Of a stretch of DNA of 64,000 nt, positions 7,025-39,032 are shown piece after piece. The notes beneath the pieces were generated by a model. It was not told the DNA's origin and did no database searches. It saw nothing but the letters and a program-made list of their open reading frames with translations. The stretch is taken from NCBI RefSeq assembly GCF_024223415.1, contig NZ_CP100500.1; one strand, 5' to 3'. Origin of the DNA: Escherichia coli. Lineage in GTDB: Bacteria; Pseudomonadota; Gammaproteobacteria; Enterobacterales; Enterobacteriaceae. Position numbers and translations under genes: made by a program. Within the stretch, counting starts at the first letter, position 1. Every line of letters starts with the position of its first letter.

Positions 7025-8757
7025 AAAAGTGGTTCTTCCGCAACCTGGGTGGAAGAAAATGGATGAAACTTTCTGGCGAACAAGGATCTAAGCTGTTTTA
7101 AGTTATGGGCAACGCAATGCACTCTCTTAAGACACTTCTACAGTTACCTTGCGGATGGCGATGCAGTCGACAAATTATTAGCTCTGACGGTATAACCCTC
7201 CATCTCCACGGAAAACGCAAAACAGCACAATGTCCTGAATGCTTTAAGCGTAGCGACTCTGTTCATAGTTGTCGTCGGCGCCGGATACAGCATCTACCCT
7301 GCTCAGGGCAGACGCTATGGCTTGTATTTTCCGTCCGCCACTGGTACTGCCGTAACCCGGCTTGTTCACGTAAAATTTTTGCCGAGTCGCTTGCTCCCTT
7401 CGCCGGTTCACACCAGCAGTCTTCACAGGCGTTACAAAATTTACAACGTCAACTGGGATTAATAGCTGGAGGTGAGGCTGGAAAACGGGCTGCAACGGCA
7501 GCGGGTCTCCGTTGCAGTGCTGATACTCTTCTTCGCAGGGTATCAATACCCCGGAGACGAAACAGTCAGGCGCGCCTCATGTCGGTATTGATGAGTGGGC
7601 GTGGCATCGGGGCCACTGCTGCGGTATGTTAATAGTCAATCTTGATACTCACCGTCCCCTCGTCCTGCTTCCCGGCCGTGATCAGCGTACGCTGGCGACC
7701 TGGTTCAGAAAATATCCGGAAATACAGGTTGTCTCGCGTGATCGCAGTGGAGTCTATGCGACAGCAGCACGTGAAGGTGCACCTCAGGCCAGACAGGTGG
7801 CCGATCGATGGCACCTGCTAAAAAATATTGGTGATGAGCCTGAACGAATGATGTACAGACATATGCCTCTGATACGTCTTGTTGTCAGAGAGTTATCACT
7901 GAAGAAATCACCTGAGCCAGAAATATCTGTGCCTGTAGCATCGCTCCGTCGTCTGGAACGCCTTAAACAGCACATCCGCAAAAAACGGCATCAGCGTTGG
8001 ACAGAGGTTATGGCCCTGCATAACAAGGGATGTAGTTTCAGGGAAATATCCCGTATTACAGGCCTGTCGCGAGTGACAGTCAGTCGCTGGGTGGGTTCAG
8101 GAACATTCCCTGAAATGTCAACTAGGCCTCCAAAGCGAGGGCTTCTGGACCCATGGAGGGAGTGGTTAAAAGAGCAACGAGAATGTGGTAATTATAACTC
8201 CGGCCGGATATGGCGGGAAATGGTGGCCAGGGGGGTTACAGGCAGTGAAACCATCGTCAGGGATGCTGTTGCCAAATGGCGTAAAGGCTGGATCCCACCG
8301 GTTACTACTGCCGCAAGACTTCCTTCAGTGTCCCGGGTAAGCCGCTGGTTGATGCCCTGGAGAATAATCAGGGGTGAAGAAAATTATGCTTTCCGATTTA
8401 TTAGTCTGATGTGTGAAAAAGAACCGGAGTTGAAAATAGCGCAGCAACTGGTACTCGAGTTCTACCGTATTCTGAAAACCTAAAATAAATCACAGCTAAG
8501 CAGCTGGTTCACTCGGGTCCACGAAAGCGGCTCAGCAGAACTTCGGTGCGTAGCTGCGGGGATGGAAGCTGATGCTGCGGCTATATGTGAGGCAATCAGC
8601 AGTCGCTGGAGTACTGGTGTTGTCGAAGGTCATGTAAATCGCCTGAAGGTGCTGATACGCCAGATGTATGGTCGAGCCGGACTTGAACTACTTAGGCGGA
8701 GGGTAATGAGTCCACTGGCATGAAAATCTTCACCCAGGTTGCGGAAGAGCCACTTTT
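7025..8757 (+). mobile_element. ISL3-family insertion sequence with imperfect terminal inverted repeats, decayed
   Basis: Left end aaaagtggttcttccgcaacctgggtg at about 7025-7051 and its near-perfect reverse complement at about 8731-8757; encloses an ISL3-type transposase. Confidence 0.7.
7105..8722 (+). pseudogene. ISL3-family transposase, disrupted by a frameshift near 7588 and an in-frame TAA at 8481-8483
   Basis: N-terminal zinc-finger region (CPECF...), ...IDEWAWHRGHCCGMLIVNLDTHRPL readable only after a frame change, then ...VVEGHVNRLKVLIRQMYGRAGLELLRRRV continues in frame after the stop. Confidence 0.75.
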
Positions 8758-8766
8758 GCACTGTTC

Positions 8767-9095
8767 GTGACAGTATGGCCTTTATGTACTCACTTTGTTA
8801 CCGGTAGCTGGATCATCACTACCGTGCTGCAAATGGTGGTGAACAGCATCAATTGTGGAATGAATGTTGCCGAAGCGACCAATGCGCCTCGTTTCCACTA
8901 TCAGTGGTTGCCGGACGAGCTGCGTGTTGAAAAGGGTTTAGTCCGGATACGCTCAAGCTGCTGGATGCAAAAGGTCAGAAAGTGGCGCTGAATGAGGCGA
9001 TGGGCAGCACGCAAAGCATTATGGTTGGGTCGGATGGTGAGTTGTACGGCGCATCCGACTCGCGCTTGGTGGATGATTTAACGGCGGGGTATTAA
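8767..9095 (+). pseudogene. ggt: gamma-glutamyltranspeptidase C-terminal fragment, frameshifted in an A-run near 8935
   Basis: GSWIITTVLQMVVNSI...NAPRFHYQWLPDELRVEKG then, after a 1-nt frame change, FSPDTLKLLDAKGQKVALNEAMGSTQSIMVGSDGELYGASDSRLVDDLTAGY; starts directly at the ISL3 right end. Confidence 0.7.
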
Positions 9096-9134: not shown

Positions 9135-10169
9135 TTATGCGGTCAATAATCGTCCGGGATTATCGATACAGAGTTTTTTGAGGATCGTTTTATCGACGCC
9201 GCGCTCCGCCAGATAGGCCAGAAAAACATCTGGAACAAATCCCCAGCCATTACCGCCATTTTTAGCCCACATTTGTTTAAGGAAGACATCGTGGCTGAGA
9301 ACAAGCTGATCGGCGTATCCCAACTCAATGAGATGAGCGACGGCATCGGCAGTCTCCTGCACCCCTGGCGCTATTCCCTCTTTCGGGAAGGTAATGTCTA
9401 GGCCAATCATGTCGAATTCCAGCCAGACACCTTTATCAAGCATTTTCCGCTGATACGCCACGTCTTTTCCTGACGGATCCGAGTGTGCGAGAGAGACTTT
9501 ATTTGGCGAGACGCCCATTTCACCTAACACAATGTCGAGTACTTCATCACCGCGACGAAGCCAGCCCGGCATGTGAATATTCATCGCCACATGAGGATTG
9601 TTAATCTGTGCCAGCGAGGCAGCCCGCAAGCTGTTATGCTCGGCTTCGGTAAATGTCGGTGAAACACCTATTTCACCGATCATTCCGGCACGAATATCCG
9701 TATCGCCAATCCCTTGATTCAATTCTTTATCGATCGTTGTCGCCAGTTCATCAACCGTTTTATGAATTCTCTGGCTTTCAAATTTTTCCAGGTAGGGACC
9801 GGAGGAAGCAACAATATTCAGACCTGTTTTTAATGCGACTTCTCGTAATGCCTGCGCATCTCGTCCGATAGACTCAGACCCTGTGGCATCAATAATGGTG
9901 CGACCACCGAGCGAGATAAAGTTATTGATTTCGAAGATCACATCTTCAATAGGTTTGCGGTCCATATTATCAGCGCAGCAATAAGGATCGTGTTTTAATG
10001 CCCACTGGATTTCTGCCGTGACTTTTTTATCAACAAGCCGTTGTGAAAAAGGATAGCAAGGAGCATCCACAACAGAGGAAAGATCGTTGAACAGATGTTC
10101 ATGAGGAAGTGTTAGCCCCATATCTTCACGGGCGACGGGGCCCGTCACAGTTTGTAGATAATCTTTCAT
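9135..10169 (-). CDS. phosphotriesterase-family metal-dependent hydrolase (Php-like, TIM-barrel amidohydrolase; possible lactonase)
   Basis: 344 aa; N-terminal GLTLPHEHL metal-binding motif characteristic of the PTE family. Confidence 0.8.
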   Translation of the reverse strand: MKDYLQTVTGPVAREDMGLTLPHEHLFNDLSSVVDAPCYPFSQRLVDKKVTAEIQWALKHDPYCCADNMDRKPIEDVIFEINNFISLGGRTIIDATGSESIGRDAQALREVALKTGLNIVASSGPYLEKFESQRIHKTVDELATTIDKELNQGIGDTDIRAGMIGEIGVSPTFTEAEHNSLRAASLAQINNPHVAMNIHMPGWLRRGDEVLDIVLGEMGVSPNKVSLAHSDPSGKDVAYQRKMLDKGVWLEFDMIGLDITFPKEGIAPGVQETADAVAHLIELGYADQLVLSHDVFLKQMWAKNGGNGWGFVPDVFLAYLAERGVDKTILKKLCIDNPGRLLTA

Positions 10170-10171
10170 GA

Positions 10172-11137
10172 TTATACCTCCATTTTCTTCATTGTTTTCG
10201 AGGTTCTGTATTCCGGAATAGTGGTAACAATTGCACCGACCAGTGCAAACAGTGTTCCGATGATCGTGACCAGATAAACGCTATTGCCCAGCGATGGAAT
10301 TAATACGTCAATCAATACTGATCCCAGTAACTGGCCCGCCGTTGAAGCAACCCCCAGCATCAGTAACCCCAGACCTCTGACCAAAATGGCCATTAAACCG
10401 ATAGACATTAGTCCAAGCGGGCCGCCAAGATACATCCACCAGACATCTGGTAATTGAACAGTGACGTGCCCTAATGCGACACGAATAGCAAGCGCTGTGC
10501 CTAAAACACAAAATCCAACGATGAAATTCTAGGTGATTGAAACCAGCATGGATCCCGTAGCTTCAGCTACTTTTGCATTTCCAGCGGGCTGCCATCCTGC
10601 AAGCAAACCAGCTAAGAACGGAAGAATGGCAAGTAAGATGAAAGAGGTAGAATGCCACTGAGGTGACACAACAAAAATCGTAGCAATAACCGCAAATAAT
10701 GCACCGATGATGCAATAAGGGGTAAAGTATTTTTTCTCGTCGACACCGATACCAAAGCGATCGCAAAGTAAACCAGACAGCAATAGCGCGGAGATCAGTG
10801 CGGTTTGAAACGTTGCGACCCCGAGTGCGCTGGCTGATGCGCCTTCAGAAAATACCACCATCGCTCCACAGAGACCGGCAAACCAGTTCCAGAGAGGAAC
10901 TTTTCGGTTTTTAATCAGAGAAGGAATTGCCGCAAATTGTTGCCGGGTTTCTTTTCGCGCCATAATAATAAAAAACATCACGACTAAACCACTGGCAAAG
11001 GAGATAACTGCGCATGCATTACCATCCTGTAACCAGTGACCTAATTGACCATTCACCGCTGATTGCATAGGGGAGAGCATACCCGCAAGAATCGTGGCAA
11101 GCATCCATAAGGGAGTTGAGTACTTATTCTTTTTCAT
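10172..11137 (-). pseudogene. DMT-superfamily (DUF606/YdcZ-like) membrane transporter interrupted by an in-frame amber codon at 10529-10531
   Basis: ORFs 10529..11137 and 10172..10435 are in the same frame; the sequence between them encodes hydrophobic helix-like residues; the single TAG (plus-strand cta) separates them. Confidence 0.7.
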
Positions 11138-11193: not shown

Positions 11194-11952
11194 TTATCTT
11201 GCAATATGAGTCAGTATATTTACCCACAACGCGGTATAGAACGGCCAGGACATAAACTGCTGTGTACCCCAGTGCGGTGAACAGTCACTCATAAAGCAGG
11301 CTATTTTCCCGTTGTGATAGTTACCAAAGACCAGTAATGGAGCGTTGTTTATTGTTAATACCACCTCAGCATTTTCTTTAGCGATCGCCCGGTTATAACC
11401 TAGGAAAAAAGGATATTCAGAGAACCCTTTAATAACTGGATGTTCAGGTTGTGATGGCTGTGCAATAACACCCTCTGGTTTTTCGACACGATCGTCACCA
11501 TCTAACATCGTAACCGGGAGCACATCAGCCAGAACTGTATTTTTATAATTGGCTTTTGCTTCAATTCCCATGAATGAGAGATAGCCGCCAATCATCAATA
11601 ACCCACCACCGTTATTCACATATTCTTTAATCAGTTCGAGAGCGTTTGGTTTTATGCGAAGCTGATAAAAAGTATCATTTTGTAGCAGGAAAGTATTACT
11701 ACCAATATCACTAATAACGATGGCATCATATTGTTCTAACTGTGCCACATCTTCAGGGAAGGCAATTTGTACCGTATGTGCTGGCATATAGGTGACATCT
11801 ACCTGACTATTTTTCAGACACTGGAGTAACCAGGTCGCACCTTCTTCATATTTACTTGAGGTAAAACTGTCATATCCTTTTGAATGAATCATATGAATAT
11901 GCCAGGATTCCCCAATAAAGAGCACTTTTAGTGATTTTTTGGTGTTATTCAT
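11194..11952 (-). CDS. ThuA-like / class I glutamine-amidotransferase-like domain protein
   Basis: 252-aa ORF; fold assignment from sequence impression only. Confidence 0.45.
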   Translation of the reverse strand: MNNTKKSLKVLFIGESWHIHMIHSKGYDSFTSSKYEEGATWLLQCLKNSQVDVTYMPAHTVQIAFPEDVAQLEQYDAIVISDIGSNTFLLQNDTFYQLRIKPNALELIKEYVNNGGGLLMIGGYLSFMGIEAKANYKNTVLADVLPVTMLDGDDRVEKPEGVIAQPSQPEHPVIKGFSEYPFFLGYNRAIAKENAEVVLTINNAPLLVFGNYHNGKIACFMSDCSPHWGTQQFMSWPFYTALWVNILTHIAR

Positions 11953-11965
11953 TCTCTGTCCCTTC

Positions 11966-13180
11966 TTAATGCGTAAAAATAGTTTGCTGATAATGTATAC
12001 TCTGAATTCGATGTATCACAGATTCATGTTCAGGCATGTCGGAAGCATTGCTTGTCTCCACCGCTAGGGATGCAAAGGCGCTGGCATAACACAGTGCTGA
12101 TTCCAGTGATTTTCCTTTCGCAAGTCCTGATGCCAGAGAGCCGTTAAACGCATCCCCGGCTCCTGCCGTATTTTTAACGACCGCTGGAAACGCTGGCGAA
12201 TGAATGAATTTTTTGCCATCAAATGCGAGCGAGCCCTTGCTACCGAGCGTGATAACCGTGTTTTTTACCCCTTTATTGTGGATAGCTTCTGCAGCTCGTT
12301 TAGCTGATTCAAGATCGTGTACGTCTATGCCGGACAGTAAACCAGCTTCTGTTTCATTGGGGGTGATATAATCAACATCCTGAATAAGTTCGTTGACGAT
12401 ATCATTATAGGGTGCCGGGTTAATAATGACCGGGATACTGTTTTTTTGCGCCAATGTGATCGCTTGTTGCAGAGCGGTATAATTTGTTTCGAGCTGCAGA
12501 AGTATGACATCAGAATTAATAATCGCTTCTTTCTGAATAGTTATTTCATCGGACGACATTGTCATGTTGGCACCGGGATAGATCGCAATAACATTATCGC
12601 CAGTACCTTCATTAACAAGGATCGTGGCAGTTCCGGTTTGCGTTTCTTTCGTTTGATAAATTATACTTTTATAAATCTTAGACGAATTCATAAAGTTGAT
12701 CGCATAATCACTAAAGTGATCTGTACCTACTTTTGTTATGAAATAAACATCAGTATCGGCAAAGCTTGCTGCCAGCGCCTGGTTACAGCCTTTTCCCCCC
12801 GGTGAAAATATAAAATTACTTGCCAGAAGCGATTCTCCGATAGTGGGAAGCCTCGGCAAATAACTGATGATATCAACATTAAACGAACCAATAACGCATA
12901 CTTGACTTTTCATAGTTGAGTGGCCTTTTTTTATTCCCTGGGCTGTATCATAATTTTCAAGCGCATAAGCGATTTCATTTTTCGCAATAGTATCAAGCGA
13001 GTCTAGGACGATAAAAGCACCGCCATGACATCGAGTCAGATAGCCAAGCCTGGCAAGTTCATTAAGATCTGAACGAATAGTTTCTTTCGTTACATTGAGG
13101 CTATTGGACAGATCGGATACTTTTACAGAACCGAATTTACTGAGTCGTTTCAATATTTCATGATGGCGTTCAAATTTCAT
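11966..13180 (-). CDS. fusion protein: N-terminal DeoR-type HTH plus PfkB/ribokinase-family carbohydrate kinase
   Basis: N-terminus HHEILKRLSKFGSVKVSDLSNSLNVTKETIRSDLNELARLGYL (DeoR HTH); kinase motifs GGKGCNQA and NTAGAGDAFNGSLASGL. Confidence 0.7.
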   Translation of the reverse strand: MKFERHHEILKRLSKFGSVKVSDLSNSLNVTKETIRSDLNELARLGYLTRCHGGAFIVLDSLDTIAKNEIAYALENYDTAQGIKKGHSTMKSQVCVIGSFNVDIISYLPRLPTIGESLLASNFIFSPGGKGCNQALAASFADTDVYFITKVGTDHFSDYAINFMNSSKIYKSIIYQTKETQTGTATILVNEGTGDNVIAIYPGANMTMSSDEITIQKEAIINSDVILLQLETNYTALQQAITLAQKNSIPVIINPAPYNDIVNELIQDVDYITPNETEAGLLSGIDVHDLESAKRAAEAIHNKGVKNTVITLGSKGSLAFDGKKFIHSPAFPAVVKNTAGAGDAFNGSLASGLAKGKSLESALCYASAFASLAVETSNASDMPEHESVIHRIQSIHYQQTIFTH

Positions 13181-13287: not shown

Positions 13288-13850
13288 GGTAAGCGTTAAT
13301 GGAGAATCATATTGATGCTTATTTATTGGTGAGAACTACGTTCCATGGCAGGAGTTCATCAATACGGTTGGAAGGTTATTCCGGCAGTACGCTCAGGATA
13401 TGGCGCAGATACGCTTCCGGATCAATGTCGTTCAGAAGGCAAGTGCCGATAAGCCCATACAACAGTGCACTGCGCTCGCCGCCGAAGAACATAAAGTTTT
13501 TATTTCCGAGACAGATGGCACAAAGGGCTTTTTCCGCGGCATTATGTCTGCCTCCGCCTGACCGTCAACACTGTAATAACAGAGTGCGCCCCACTGATTC
13601 AGTACACAGCTGAACCATTCTCCCAGTCTGGATTTTTGGATAGCGTGGCATTTTTCTCCACCATGCATGCAGTGAGTCCAGTAACAGTTTGCTCTTCTTC
13701 TGCCTGACCACAAGATGTGCTGGACTGGTAAACGATGGGGATACCTGCTTACGCGAGAGCAATAAGTGGCTGGCCACAATTCTCGGTACAAAACTCTGCT
13801 GAATAGCAGCGATTTTCCCAGCGTGGTGCGTCGTTTTCATTTTACTGGTT
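13288..13850 (-). mobile_element. IS66-family remnant: terminal repeat (GTAAGCG at 13288) plus frameshifted 3' part of a transposase gene
   Basis: Minus-strand translation near 13327-13380 gives PSNRIDELLPWNVVLTNK*, resembling the IS66 transposase C-terminus; upstream frames are broken. Confidence 0.6.
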
Positions 13851-15230
13851 CTAAGTTAACAATTATCTGTTCACTAATGACTACTCTAAAAACTTGTATC
13901 AGGACTATCACTTATTTAAGTGATATTGGTTGTCTGGAGATTCAGGGGGCCAGTCTATAAACTTTTTACAAAAGGATGAATGCAGAAGGTTACTCTAATG
14001 GCCAGAGTGATGACAATGATGGTCAGACGTTGACCTGCAGAAACTGCATTTTAATTGGTCTATAAAGTCTGCAAGAGGAATCAGGGTCAGATCAGTGAGT
14101 CTTATCGCGGCCCGAAGCTATGACTGAAAGAAGGCTGGATACAGAATTGCAACAATTTGGCAATGTCAGAACACAGAAGCTTTGCAAGCAGGTGAAAGGT
14201 TATGTCTAGCAAAAGGAGTATATCAGAATACATCTACTGATGTACAAAACACAACAATAGCTTCATGATATATAAATACGTGATGACGAGTGGTACTCCG
14301 CATGGTTATTTAACTTCTCAGCACCACTAATGATCCTGAGCAACTTCGTATTTGGGCCATTGCCATGGAGTAGAAAGCTGTGTCTGAGAATGCAGAATTT
14401 GAGAAAAGAATTCGCTTTCTTGGAGAGCTTCTGAAAATGGCACGCTAACAACGTTTTGTTAAAAAATGTGAATCACTTGCCGGGGCTGCATTTTCTATTC
14501 GAGGAGAATGTTGACGTAGATATTACAGAAATCTCAGCGCATCAGGATAAACTGCTACCTTAGGTCAACCACCAAAAGAAAATACAATACGTCCAGTTTG
14601 TATGCCTTTAATAACACATCTTCTAAATGTTGAAGAATTATCCCGCCTGCTGAAGAACGTTGCTCTGAGTGTGATAAACCTTTTTATTCTTGATGATGTC
14701 AGCGAGAAGATGGAATATATCCCCGACTGGGTCGTGGTTACCCGGTTAAACATCTGGTGGCGCTAATAAATCTGGCAAGTCACATTCTGTTGAATGCTGT
14801 GACAGTGCCTTACCGAGAGAGCGAAATTGTGGTGTTCTAGTGCATAGTCGCCACCATTCCGGATAATTCTATTGCGTTGTTTTACAAGTTCTTTTACAGC
14901 GCAGATCTGTTGCTGACGTTGAATCAATAGCCTGGATTTCAGAACACAATGCCCGTTTGCTGGTTGGTCCGGCAGTAGCATTAATTCATTATCTGAATGA
15001 AATGTGTCAATCCACAGAAACCGCTGTCAATGACACATTTTGTCGGACGTTAACACGAGAAAGTCTGGCTATTCCGTAATGCCATCTTATTTCGTAATGG
15101 ATTGAGAATGCTGGATTTTTAATTATATTACGCGCAGTATTAATCGCGTAAATGTTTTGCGGTCAGCAACGGTGGGGGATCCATTGTTCTGTTCAATGAA
15201 TACCATCATACATTTGAATCAGGAGTCGGT

Positions 15231-21068: not shown

Positions 21069-21144
21069 TGGCTCCTCTGACTGGACTCGAACCAGTGACA
21101 TACGGATTAACAGTCCGCCGTTCTACCGACTGAACTACAGAGGA
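21069..21144 (-). tRNA. asnU: tRNA-Asn (GUU)
   Basis: Identical sequence to asnV. Confidence 0.95.
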
Positions 21145-22892: not shown

Positions 22893-22968
22893 TCCTCTGT
22901 AGTTCAGTCGGTAGAACGGCGGACTGTTAATCCGTATGTCACTGGTTCGAGTCCAGTCAGAGGAGCCA
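22893..22968 (+). tRNA. asnW: tRNA-Asn (GUU)
   Basis: TCCTCTGTAGTTCAGTCGGTAGAACGGCGGACTGTTAATCCGTATGTCACTGGTTCGAGTCCAGTCAGAGGAGCCA. Confidence 0.95.
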
Positions 22969-37875: not shown

Positions 37876-37951
37876 TGGCTCCTCTGACTGGACTCGAACC
37901 AGTGACATACGGATTAACAGTCCGCCGTTCTACCGACTGAACTACAGAGGA
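37876..37951 (-). tRNA. asnT: tRNA-Asn (GUU)
   Basis: Identical to asnV/asnU. Confidence 0.95.
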
Positions 37952-38942: not shown

Positions 38943-39032
38943 GGAGAGATGCCGGAGCGGCTGAACGGACCGGTCTCGAAAACCGGAGTAGGGGCAACTC
39001 TACCGGGGGTTCAAATCCCCCTCTCTCCGCCA
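38943..39032 (+). tRNA. serU: tRNA-Ser (CGA)
   Basis: GGAGAGATGCCGGAGCGGCTGAACGGACCGGTCTCGAAAACCGG...CTCTCCGCCA, long variable arm, anticodon CGA. Confidence 0.9.

Follow-up and report, generated by a model that had tools for sequence, protein, structure and literature searches.

A common amber allele of a DMT_YdcZ transporter gene in Escherichia coli is best explained as a loss-of-function nonsense mutation

Does an amber codon in the middle of a transporter reading frame mark a dead gene, a gene whose stop is read through, a half-size protein that works in its own right, two genes taken for one, or an error in the assembly? The question is raised by a DUF606-type transporter gene in a 64,000-nucleotide stretch of Escherichia coli DNA (assembly GCF_024223415.1, contig NZ_CP100500.1; the whole stretch is referred to below as the window), where a TAG separates two parts that share one reading frame. 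A sequence-only reading of the window had left the choice between a recent inactivating nonsense mutation, a sequencing error, and a gene that depends on amber suppression. Having compared the gene with its orthologues and with its counterparts in complete E. coli genomes, we regard it as very probable that this is a plain loss-of-function nonsense allele of a DMT_YdcZ transporter, which arose once and to which damage was added later.

Results

A single two-repeat frame is interrupted at codon 203

The gene and its parts lie in the window as follows.

10172..11137, minus strand: DMT_YdcZ (PF04657) transporter gene, homologue of STM3549; a pseudogene, broken at codon 203 (ORFs and Pfam)
10529..10531, minus strand: amber codon TAG, codon 203, which appears as c-t-a on the plus strand
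10532..11137, minus strand: N-terminal part that is still translated, 202 aa, covering the first YdcZ repeat, one further hydrophobic segment (the sixth) and the first residues of the seventh
10172..10528, minus strand: stranded 3' part, 118 codons plus TAA, with the remainder of the second YdcZ repeat

Read from 11137 down to 10172 on the minus strand, the gene translates as a single frame of 321 codons with one internal stop, at codon 203, and a terminal TAA; in the ORF listing, the 202-aa ORF ends exactly at 10529. (The plus strand also spells tag at 10530-10532, a coincidence that is irrelevant to the amber codon.) Downstream of the TAG, homology to the last 118 residues of intact alleles and orthologues is 100%, which means that the frame truly continues past the stop and has not stayed open by chance. 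With one 321-codon frame, a TAG at its codon 203, and a match to PF04657, the earlier description of an in-frame amber at 10529-10531 splitting a DUF606-type transporter gene proved accurate.

PF04657 (DMT_YdcZ, formerly DUF606) matches the intact allele in two stretches (157.5 bits; cut-off 24), the fused two-repeat form of the family, and the window's translatable 202-aa ORF in one (residues 10-154; 107.1 bits; cut-off 24). Because its second repeat is cut at codon 203, we class the window copy as a pseudogene of the DMT_YdcZ family and not as a functional member. The hydrophobic residues noticed earlier on both sides of the TAG belong to one segment: by Kyte-Doolittle hydropathy, codon 203 falls within the seventh hydrophobic segment (residues 195-227), and Pfam and hydropathy together place the cut inside the second repeat and not at the boundary between the repeats. 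Beyond the amber codon, the frame offers no start codon (ATG, GTG, or TTG) until the ATG of codon 235 at 10435, and nothing like a convincing ribosome-binding site was seen near that ATG. The copy combines two marks of a nonsense pseudogene, namely an in-frame stop where full-length orthologues carry a sense codon and a downstream part that lacks a translation start of its own.

Tryptophan is the ancestral residue, and TAG is a common allele

In a protein search we found 302 relatives. Those of full length are single proteins of ~315-342 aa with 64-93% identity, and they come from Citrobacter, Salmonella, Klebsiella, Pectobacterium, Proteus, Anaerobiospirillum, Bifidobacterium, and Lactobacillaceae. 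Trp203 is present, within the conserved motif TGSMLVSITWNFIVGF, in all 22 of the full-length orthologues that were aligned, which range from Citrobacter to Bifidobacterium and lactobacilli, and not one of these 22 is split into two genes at codon 203. The sole 202-aa entry among the relatives is the E. coli truncation itself (protein cluster P0114, 685 member sequences). Judged from this alignment, the ancestral residue at codon 203 is tryptophan.

The mutated base is window position 10530, a T on the plus strand where intact alleles have the C that gives TGG on the coding strand. In an alignment of 71 bases around it, Nissle 1917, AMSCJX02, and MRE162 have TGG, the window, Combat11I9, and O145:H28 have TAG, and all the other bases are identical. 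The TGG strains have the gene annotated as an intact 321-aa protein; the intact E. coli alleles (WP_000739817.1 in Nissle 1917, WP_000739825.1, and WP_000739816.1) occupy the same locus adjoining cobU, and intact alleles share 98.6-99.5% nucleotide identity with the window copy.

Among complete E. coli genomes, the exact TAG 71-mer was found in 598 of 2038 records and the exact TGG 71-mer in 1428, with 12 carrying some other sequence, and TGG stands at codon 203 in 70% of E. coli carriers. The TAG allele is a common, segregating allele, present in ~29% of gene carriers, and it is not private to one strain. RefSeq lists the gene as a pseudogene with an internal stop in Combat11I9, 181.1, O145:H28 RM13516, ATCC 8739, EC21Z-063, Z1002, and CFSAN061768; it is an ordinary nonsense pseudogene that the annotation already records, and neither the paper on the cassette (PMC13432705) nor the survey of in-frame stops (PMC7918605) mentions the TAG allele. 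The idea of a recent inactivating nonsense mutation is upheld in its main part by the TGG-to-TAG change, by the tryptophan in 22/22 orthologues, and by the RefSeq pseudogene entries; it has to be qualified in that the allele is common (598/2038).

All sampled TAG alleles share one haplotype, and some carry further damage

We compared 19 E. coli alleles over the transporter gene and its two neighboring genes, and eight of these are TAG alleles. All eight represent one haplotype, which reaches into the neighboring genes and is marked by 477T in the transporter gene and 132G in the amidotransferase gene, with 857G in seven of the eight. Because the eight share this haplotype, the comparison points to a single origin of the amber mutation. 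The TAG allele of Z1002 has the TGG-type bases at transporter positions 857 (857C) and 934 (934G), and this suggests that recombination took place between haplotypes downstream of the stop.

The window copy carries a second lesion.

10712..10714, minus strand: codon 142, TGC (Cys) in place of CGC (Arg), giving R142C (alignment)

Arg142 is invariant in 22/22 orthologues. The window shares R142C with Combat11I9 and 181.1; with its exact 71-mer in just 2 of 2030 E. coli records, the change is a recent event in the window's lineage, later than the amber mutation. Another TAG strain, CFSAN061768, has lost the start codon (ATG to ATA), and most TAG alleles carry T286S. Within the TAG clade we counted three nonsynonymous and three synonymous changes, a count too small for a formal test of selection. 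Both R142C and the loss of the start codon would fit a TAG clade in which constraint has been lost.

The gene belongs to a rikA-type cassette that is decaying in E. coli

The transporter gene is the third of a four-gene minus-strand cassette that adjoins cobU and has the rikA-type order HTH_DeoR-PfkB, GATase1_like, DMT_YdcZ, and PTE. The other three genes are as follows.

11966..13180, minus strand: HTH_DeoR plus PfkB kinase gene, homologue of RikA/STM3547, first gene of the cassette; intact, 404 aa (ORF and Pfam)
11194..11952, minus strand: GATase1_like (PF07090) gene, homologue of STM3548, upstream of the transporter gene; intact, 252 aa (ORF and Pfam)
9135..10169, minus strand: phosphotriesterase family (PF02126) gene, homologue of STM3550, downstream of the transporter gene; ORF intact, 344 aa (ORF and Pfam)

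Since these three genes are intact in the window, the copy of the cassette found here is not clearly defunct. The window is chromosomal DNA of E. coli and is colinear with strain Combat11I9 over 14.9 kb, with six mismatches. In two Klebsiella loci (L021 and L022), the order of the four genes is identical. K-12 MG1655 lacks the cassette at the corresponding locus. The cassette is framed by debris at window positions 7105-9095 and 13376-15079 (coordinates transferred from the colinear Combat11I9 annotation). One flank has an ISL3 transposase pseudogene together with a piece of a gamma-glutamyltransferase gene; the other has remnants of IS66 and IS4 transposases and, immediately ahead of cobU, part of a cobalamin-biosynthesis gene.

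The rikA (STM3547)-STM3548-STM3549-STM3550 cluster is conserved in Escherichia, and RikA, the only member that has been characterized, has a ribose kinase activity that is possibly off-target (PMC13432705). Salmonella enterica STM3549 is the closest point of comparison for the transporter, being 93% identical at full length (P0005) and standing in the same four-gene order, but the Salmonella gene is intact, whereas the window copy has W203* and R142C. In the intact E. coli alleles, annotated as functional proteins of 321 aa, codon 203 is TGG and codon 142 is CGC.

We also looked at the whole cassette in 19 E. coli loci, which were chosen to be spread by sequence divergence and whose counts are not population frequencies. 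All four genes are annotated as intact in three of the 19 (Nissle 1917, Ecol_745, and MS7163). The lesions seen outside the transporter gene were these.

rikA homologue, internal stop, on a shared haplotype that has an intact transporter gene: AMSCJX02, MRE162, PEB01-20, NCTC11121, and MDR_56 (L004, L005, L014, L016, and L017)
rikA homologue, frameshift: EC21Z-063, U1, and CFSAN061768
amidotransferase gene, frameshift or internal stop: Z1002 and WP5-S17
IS insertions or deletions: AMSCJX02, Z1002, WP5-S17, and Ecol_AZ147

On these annotations, the cassette is decaying by different routes in many lineages, and it has been inactivated independently several times, because only three of the 19 sampled cassettes have four intact genes.

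Discussion

A probable single loss of function and its likely consequences

The explanation that we prefer is as follows. A G-to-A transition on the coding strand (C to T at 10530) turned the invariant Trp203 codon from TGG into TAG. The affected codon sits midway along the seventh predicted membrane segment of a DMT_YdcZ transporter with a predicted architecture of ten segments in two repeats. Release factor 1 would terminate at this TAG once 202 residues have been joined, leaving most of the second repeat (the final 118 residues) unmade, and the 202-aa product would not suffice to build the ten-segment transporter. The mutation would have had a single origin on one haplotype of the rikA-STM3548-STM3549-STM3550-like cassette. 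It is now present in ~29% of cassette carriers, and the TAG lineages have since taken further damage, R142C in the window's lineage included.

The stop may also reach beyond its own gene. The phosphotriesterase ATG lies 2 nt past the natural stop of the transporter gene, with a GGAGG 7 nt upstream, and because of this close spacing the premature stop probably lowers phosphotriesterase expression. Coupling into the phosphotriesterase gene would be lost because ribosomes stop 357 nt early; expression could be lowered through this loss of translational coupling or through Rho-dependent polarity.

Outside the upkeep of annotations, the finding has little weight: the TAG is no error, and this strain's copy of the gene is to be handled as a pseudogene. 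Work on the cassette in E. coli needs a strain with four intact genes, such as Nissle 1917. The TAG and TGG forms offer a natural allele pair for testing the role of the transporter once its substrate has been found.

Alternative explanations

We considered whether the TAG allele might be maintained and not be a case of neutral decay, either because loss or down-tuning of the transporter is advantageous or because leaky readthrough at UAG-A supplies a low level of transporter that is tolerated, and we judge this to be improbable. If loss were advantageous, this would be in keeping with other cassette genes having been inactivated independently, for example, by the internal stop in rikA on another haplotype. 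The version with leaky readthrough follows a suggestion already made for in-frame stops that persist in bacteria (PMC7918605).

Less probable still is that the amber codon is read through, by a suppressor tRNA or by basal near-cognate decoding at TAG-A, so that the gene remains functional at a low level of full-length protein. E. coli does show some low-level basal near-cognate readthrough of UAG, and among the contexts for amber suppression, a 3' A is comparatively favorable. The TAG allele is frequent (598 records), and all eight of the sampled TAG alleles keep the 118 downstream codons open, with two synonymous substitutions among the changes there; however, an open downstream frame is expected anyway at 0-4 SNPs per 966 bp. 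A survey of in-frame stops argues that some persistent ones in bacteria may be read through and that most are short-lived and deleterious (Belinky et al. 2021, PMC7918605). Against readthrough of this one, the stop shows no conservation: codon 203 encodes Trp in all 22 orthologues and in 70% of E. coli carriers, and within the species only one haplotype carries TAG. The TAG clade has, in addition, a change at an invariant residue (R142C) and a lost start codon.

The search for a suppressor covered the tRNA genes of the window, of which a tRNA scan found five, and a supE-type allele.

38943-39032, plus strand: serU, tRNA-Ser (CGA), the supD locus, with the wild-type CGA anticodon
18660-18735, 21069-21144, 22893-22968, and 37876-37951: four tRNA-Asn (GTT) genes

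For the supE-type allele, K-12 glnV with its anticodon changed to CTA served as the query against all complete E. coli genomes. An exact supE-type tRNA-Gln (CUA) was found in 155 of 5423 records, and among the matches listed, 60 of 60 were K-12 laboratory derivatives, with C600, DH5alpha, DH1, and J53 among them. Because the listed carriers are K-12 laboratory derivatives, the 598 natural TAG isolates cannot plausibly rely on a supE-type suppressor, and K-12 itself is without the cassette at this locus. Dependence on amber suppression, one of the three possibilities first raised for this gene, is argued against by the sense codon in all orthologues and most carriers, the wild-type serU in the window, the K-12 laboratory origin of all 60 listed supE-type matches, and the extra damage in the TAG clade; basal UAG readthrough here would be incidental leakage and not a design feature.

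We give equally little credence to the proposal that the 202-aa fragment is itself a working half-size transporter, which would form homodimers in the manner of YdcZ proteins with one repeat (~150 aa). PF04657, the Pfam family of the window transporter, does include members with a single repeat, E. coli YdcZ (149 aa) among them, and the fragment holds a complete DMT_YdcZ repeat (residues 10-154, 107 bits). However, YdcZ-type proteins have ~150 aa and one repeat, whereas the window gene has the fused two-repeat form, and its truncation gives no clean single repeat: beyond that repeat it has a sixth segment and half of a seventh, neither of which a half-transporter would contain. None of the 302 relatives is organized in this way, the short entries being only partial sequences or the same E. 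coli truncation, and the N-terminal half is itself damaged in the TAG clade by R142C and by the loss of the start codon.

An error of sequencing or assembly in a genome whose true codon is TGG has next to no likelihood: the difference is a single base, but the identical TAG 71-mer is found in 598 independent complete assemblies, and the TAG is linked to other haplotype-specific SNPs in the transporter gene and its neighbors, so this earlier suggestion can be dropped. DMT-superfamily proteins do consist of two homologous halves, and the sequence is hydrophobic on both sides of the stop, but two adjacent half-transporter genes with a stop and restart, misread as one, are just as remote a prospect, given that the stop lies inside the second repeat (segment 7) and not between the repeats, that no start codon precedes codon 235 and no ribosome-binding site follows the stop, and that the orthologues, whose comparison had been proposed at the outset as a way to reveal such a pair, are all single fused proteins (22/22). 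Tried as a candidate in its own right, a split half-size DMT gene pair showed neither starts of its own, nor a boundary between the repeats, nor split orthologues.

Related systems and further observations

The loss-of-function reading has parallels elsewhere. The rpoS amber allele in E. coli K-12 lineages is likewise a segregating nonsense pseudogene. Belinky et al. (2021, PMC7918605) surveyed in-frame stop polymorphisms that resemble the TAG allele in being one-base sense-to-stop changes, shared by many related strains, in a frame that is otherwise open. Unlike in the surveyed stops, we saw here no conservation of the stop across species, no reversal in the sample, and no linked suppressor.

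Two observations concern other parts of the window. Salmonella RikA made under the conditions of the published study starts at Met90 and is without the N-terminal DeoR helix-turn-helix (PMC13432705). The 404-aa RikA homologue of the window keeps HTH_DeoR (residues 5-56) and has a Met near the position equivalent to Met90, so the question of two isoforms extends to it. The Asn tRNA genes are spaced more widely in the window than in K-12, and this wider spacing hints at islands inserted at these tRNA sites.

The transporter is unusually conserved across phyla, with 64-68% identity between the E. coli protein and those of Lactobacillaceae and Bifidobacterium (P0076-P0111). In Lentilactobacillus hilgardii (locus L019, 5172-8110), only the GATase1_like and DMT_YdcZ pair of the cassette is retained, followed by a CBAH-family hydrolase and an amidase that replace the PTE gene and the PfkB kinase. 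This pattern suggests that the amidotransferase-like protein and the transporter form a functional core and that the two genes move horizontally as a pair.
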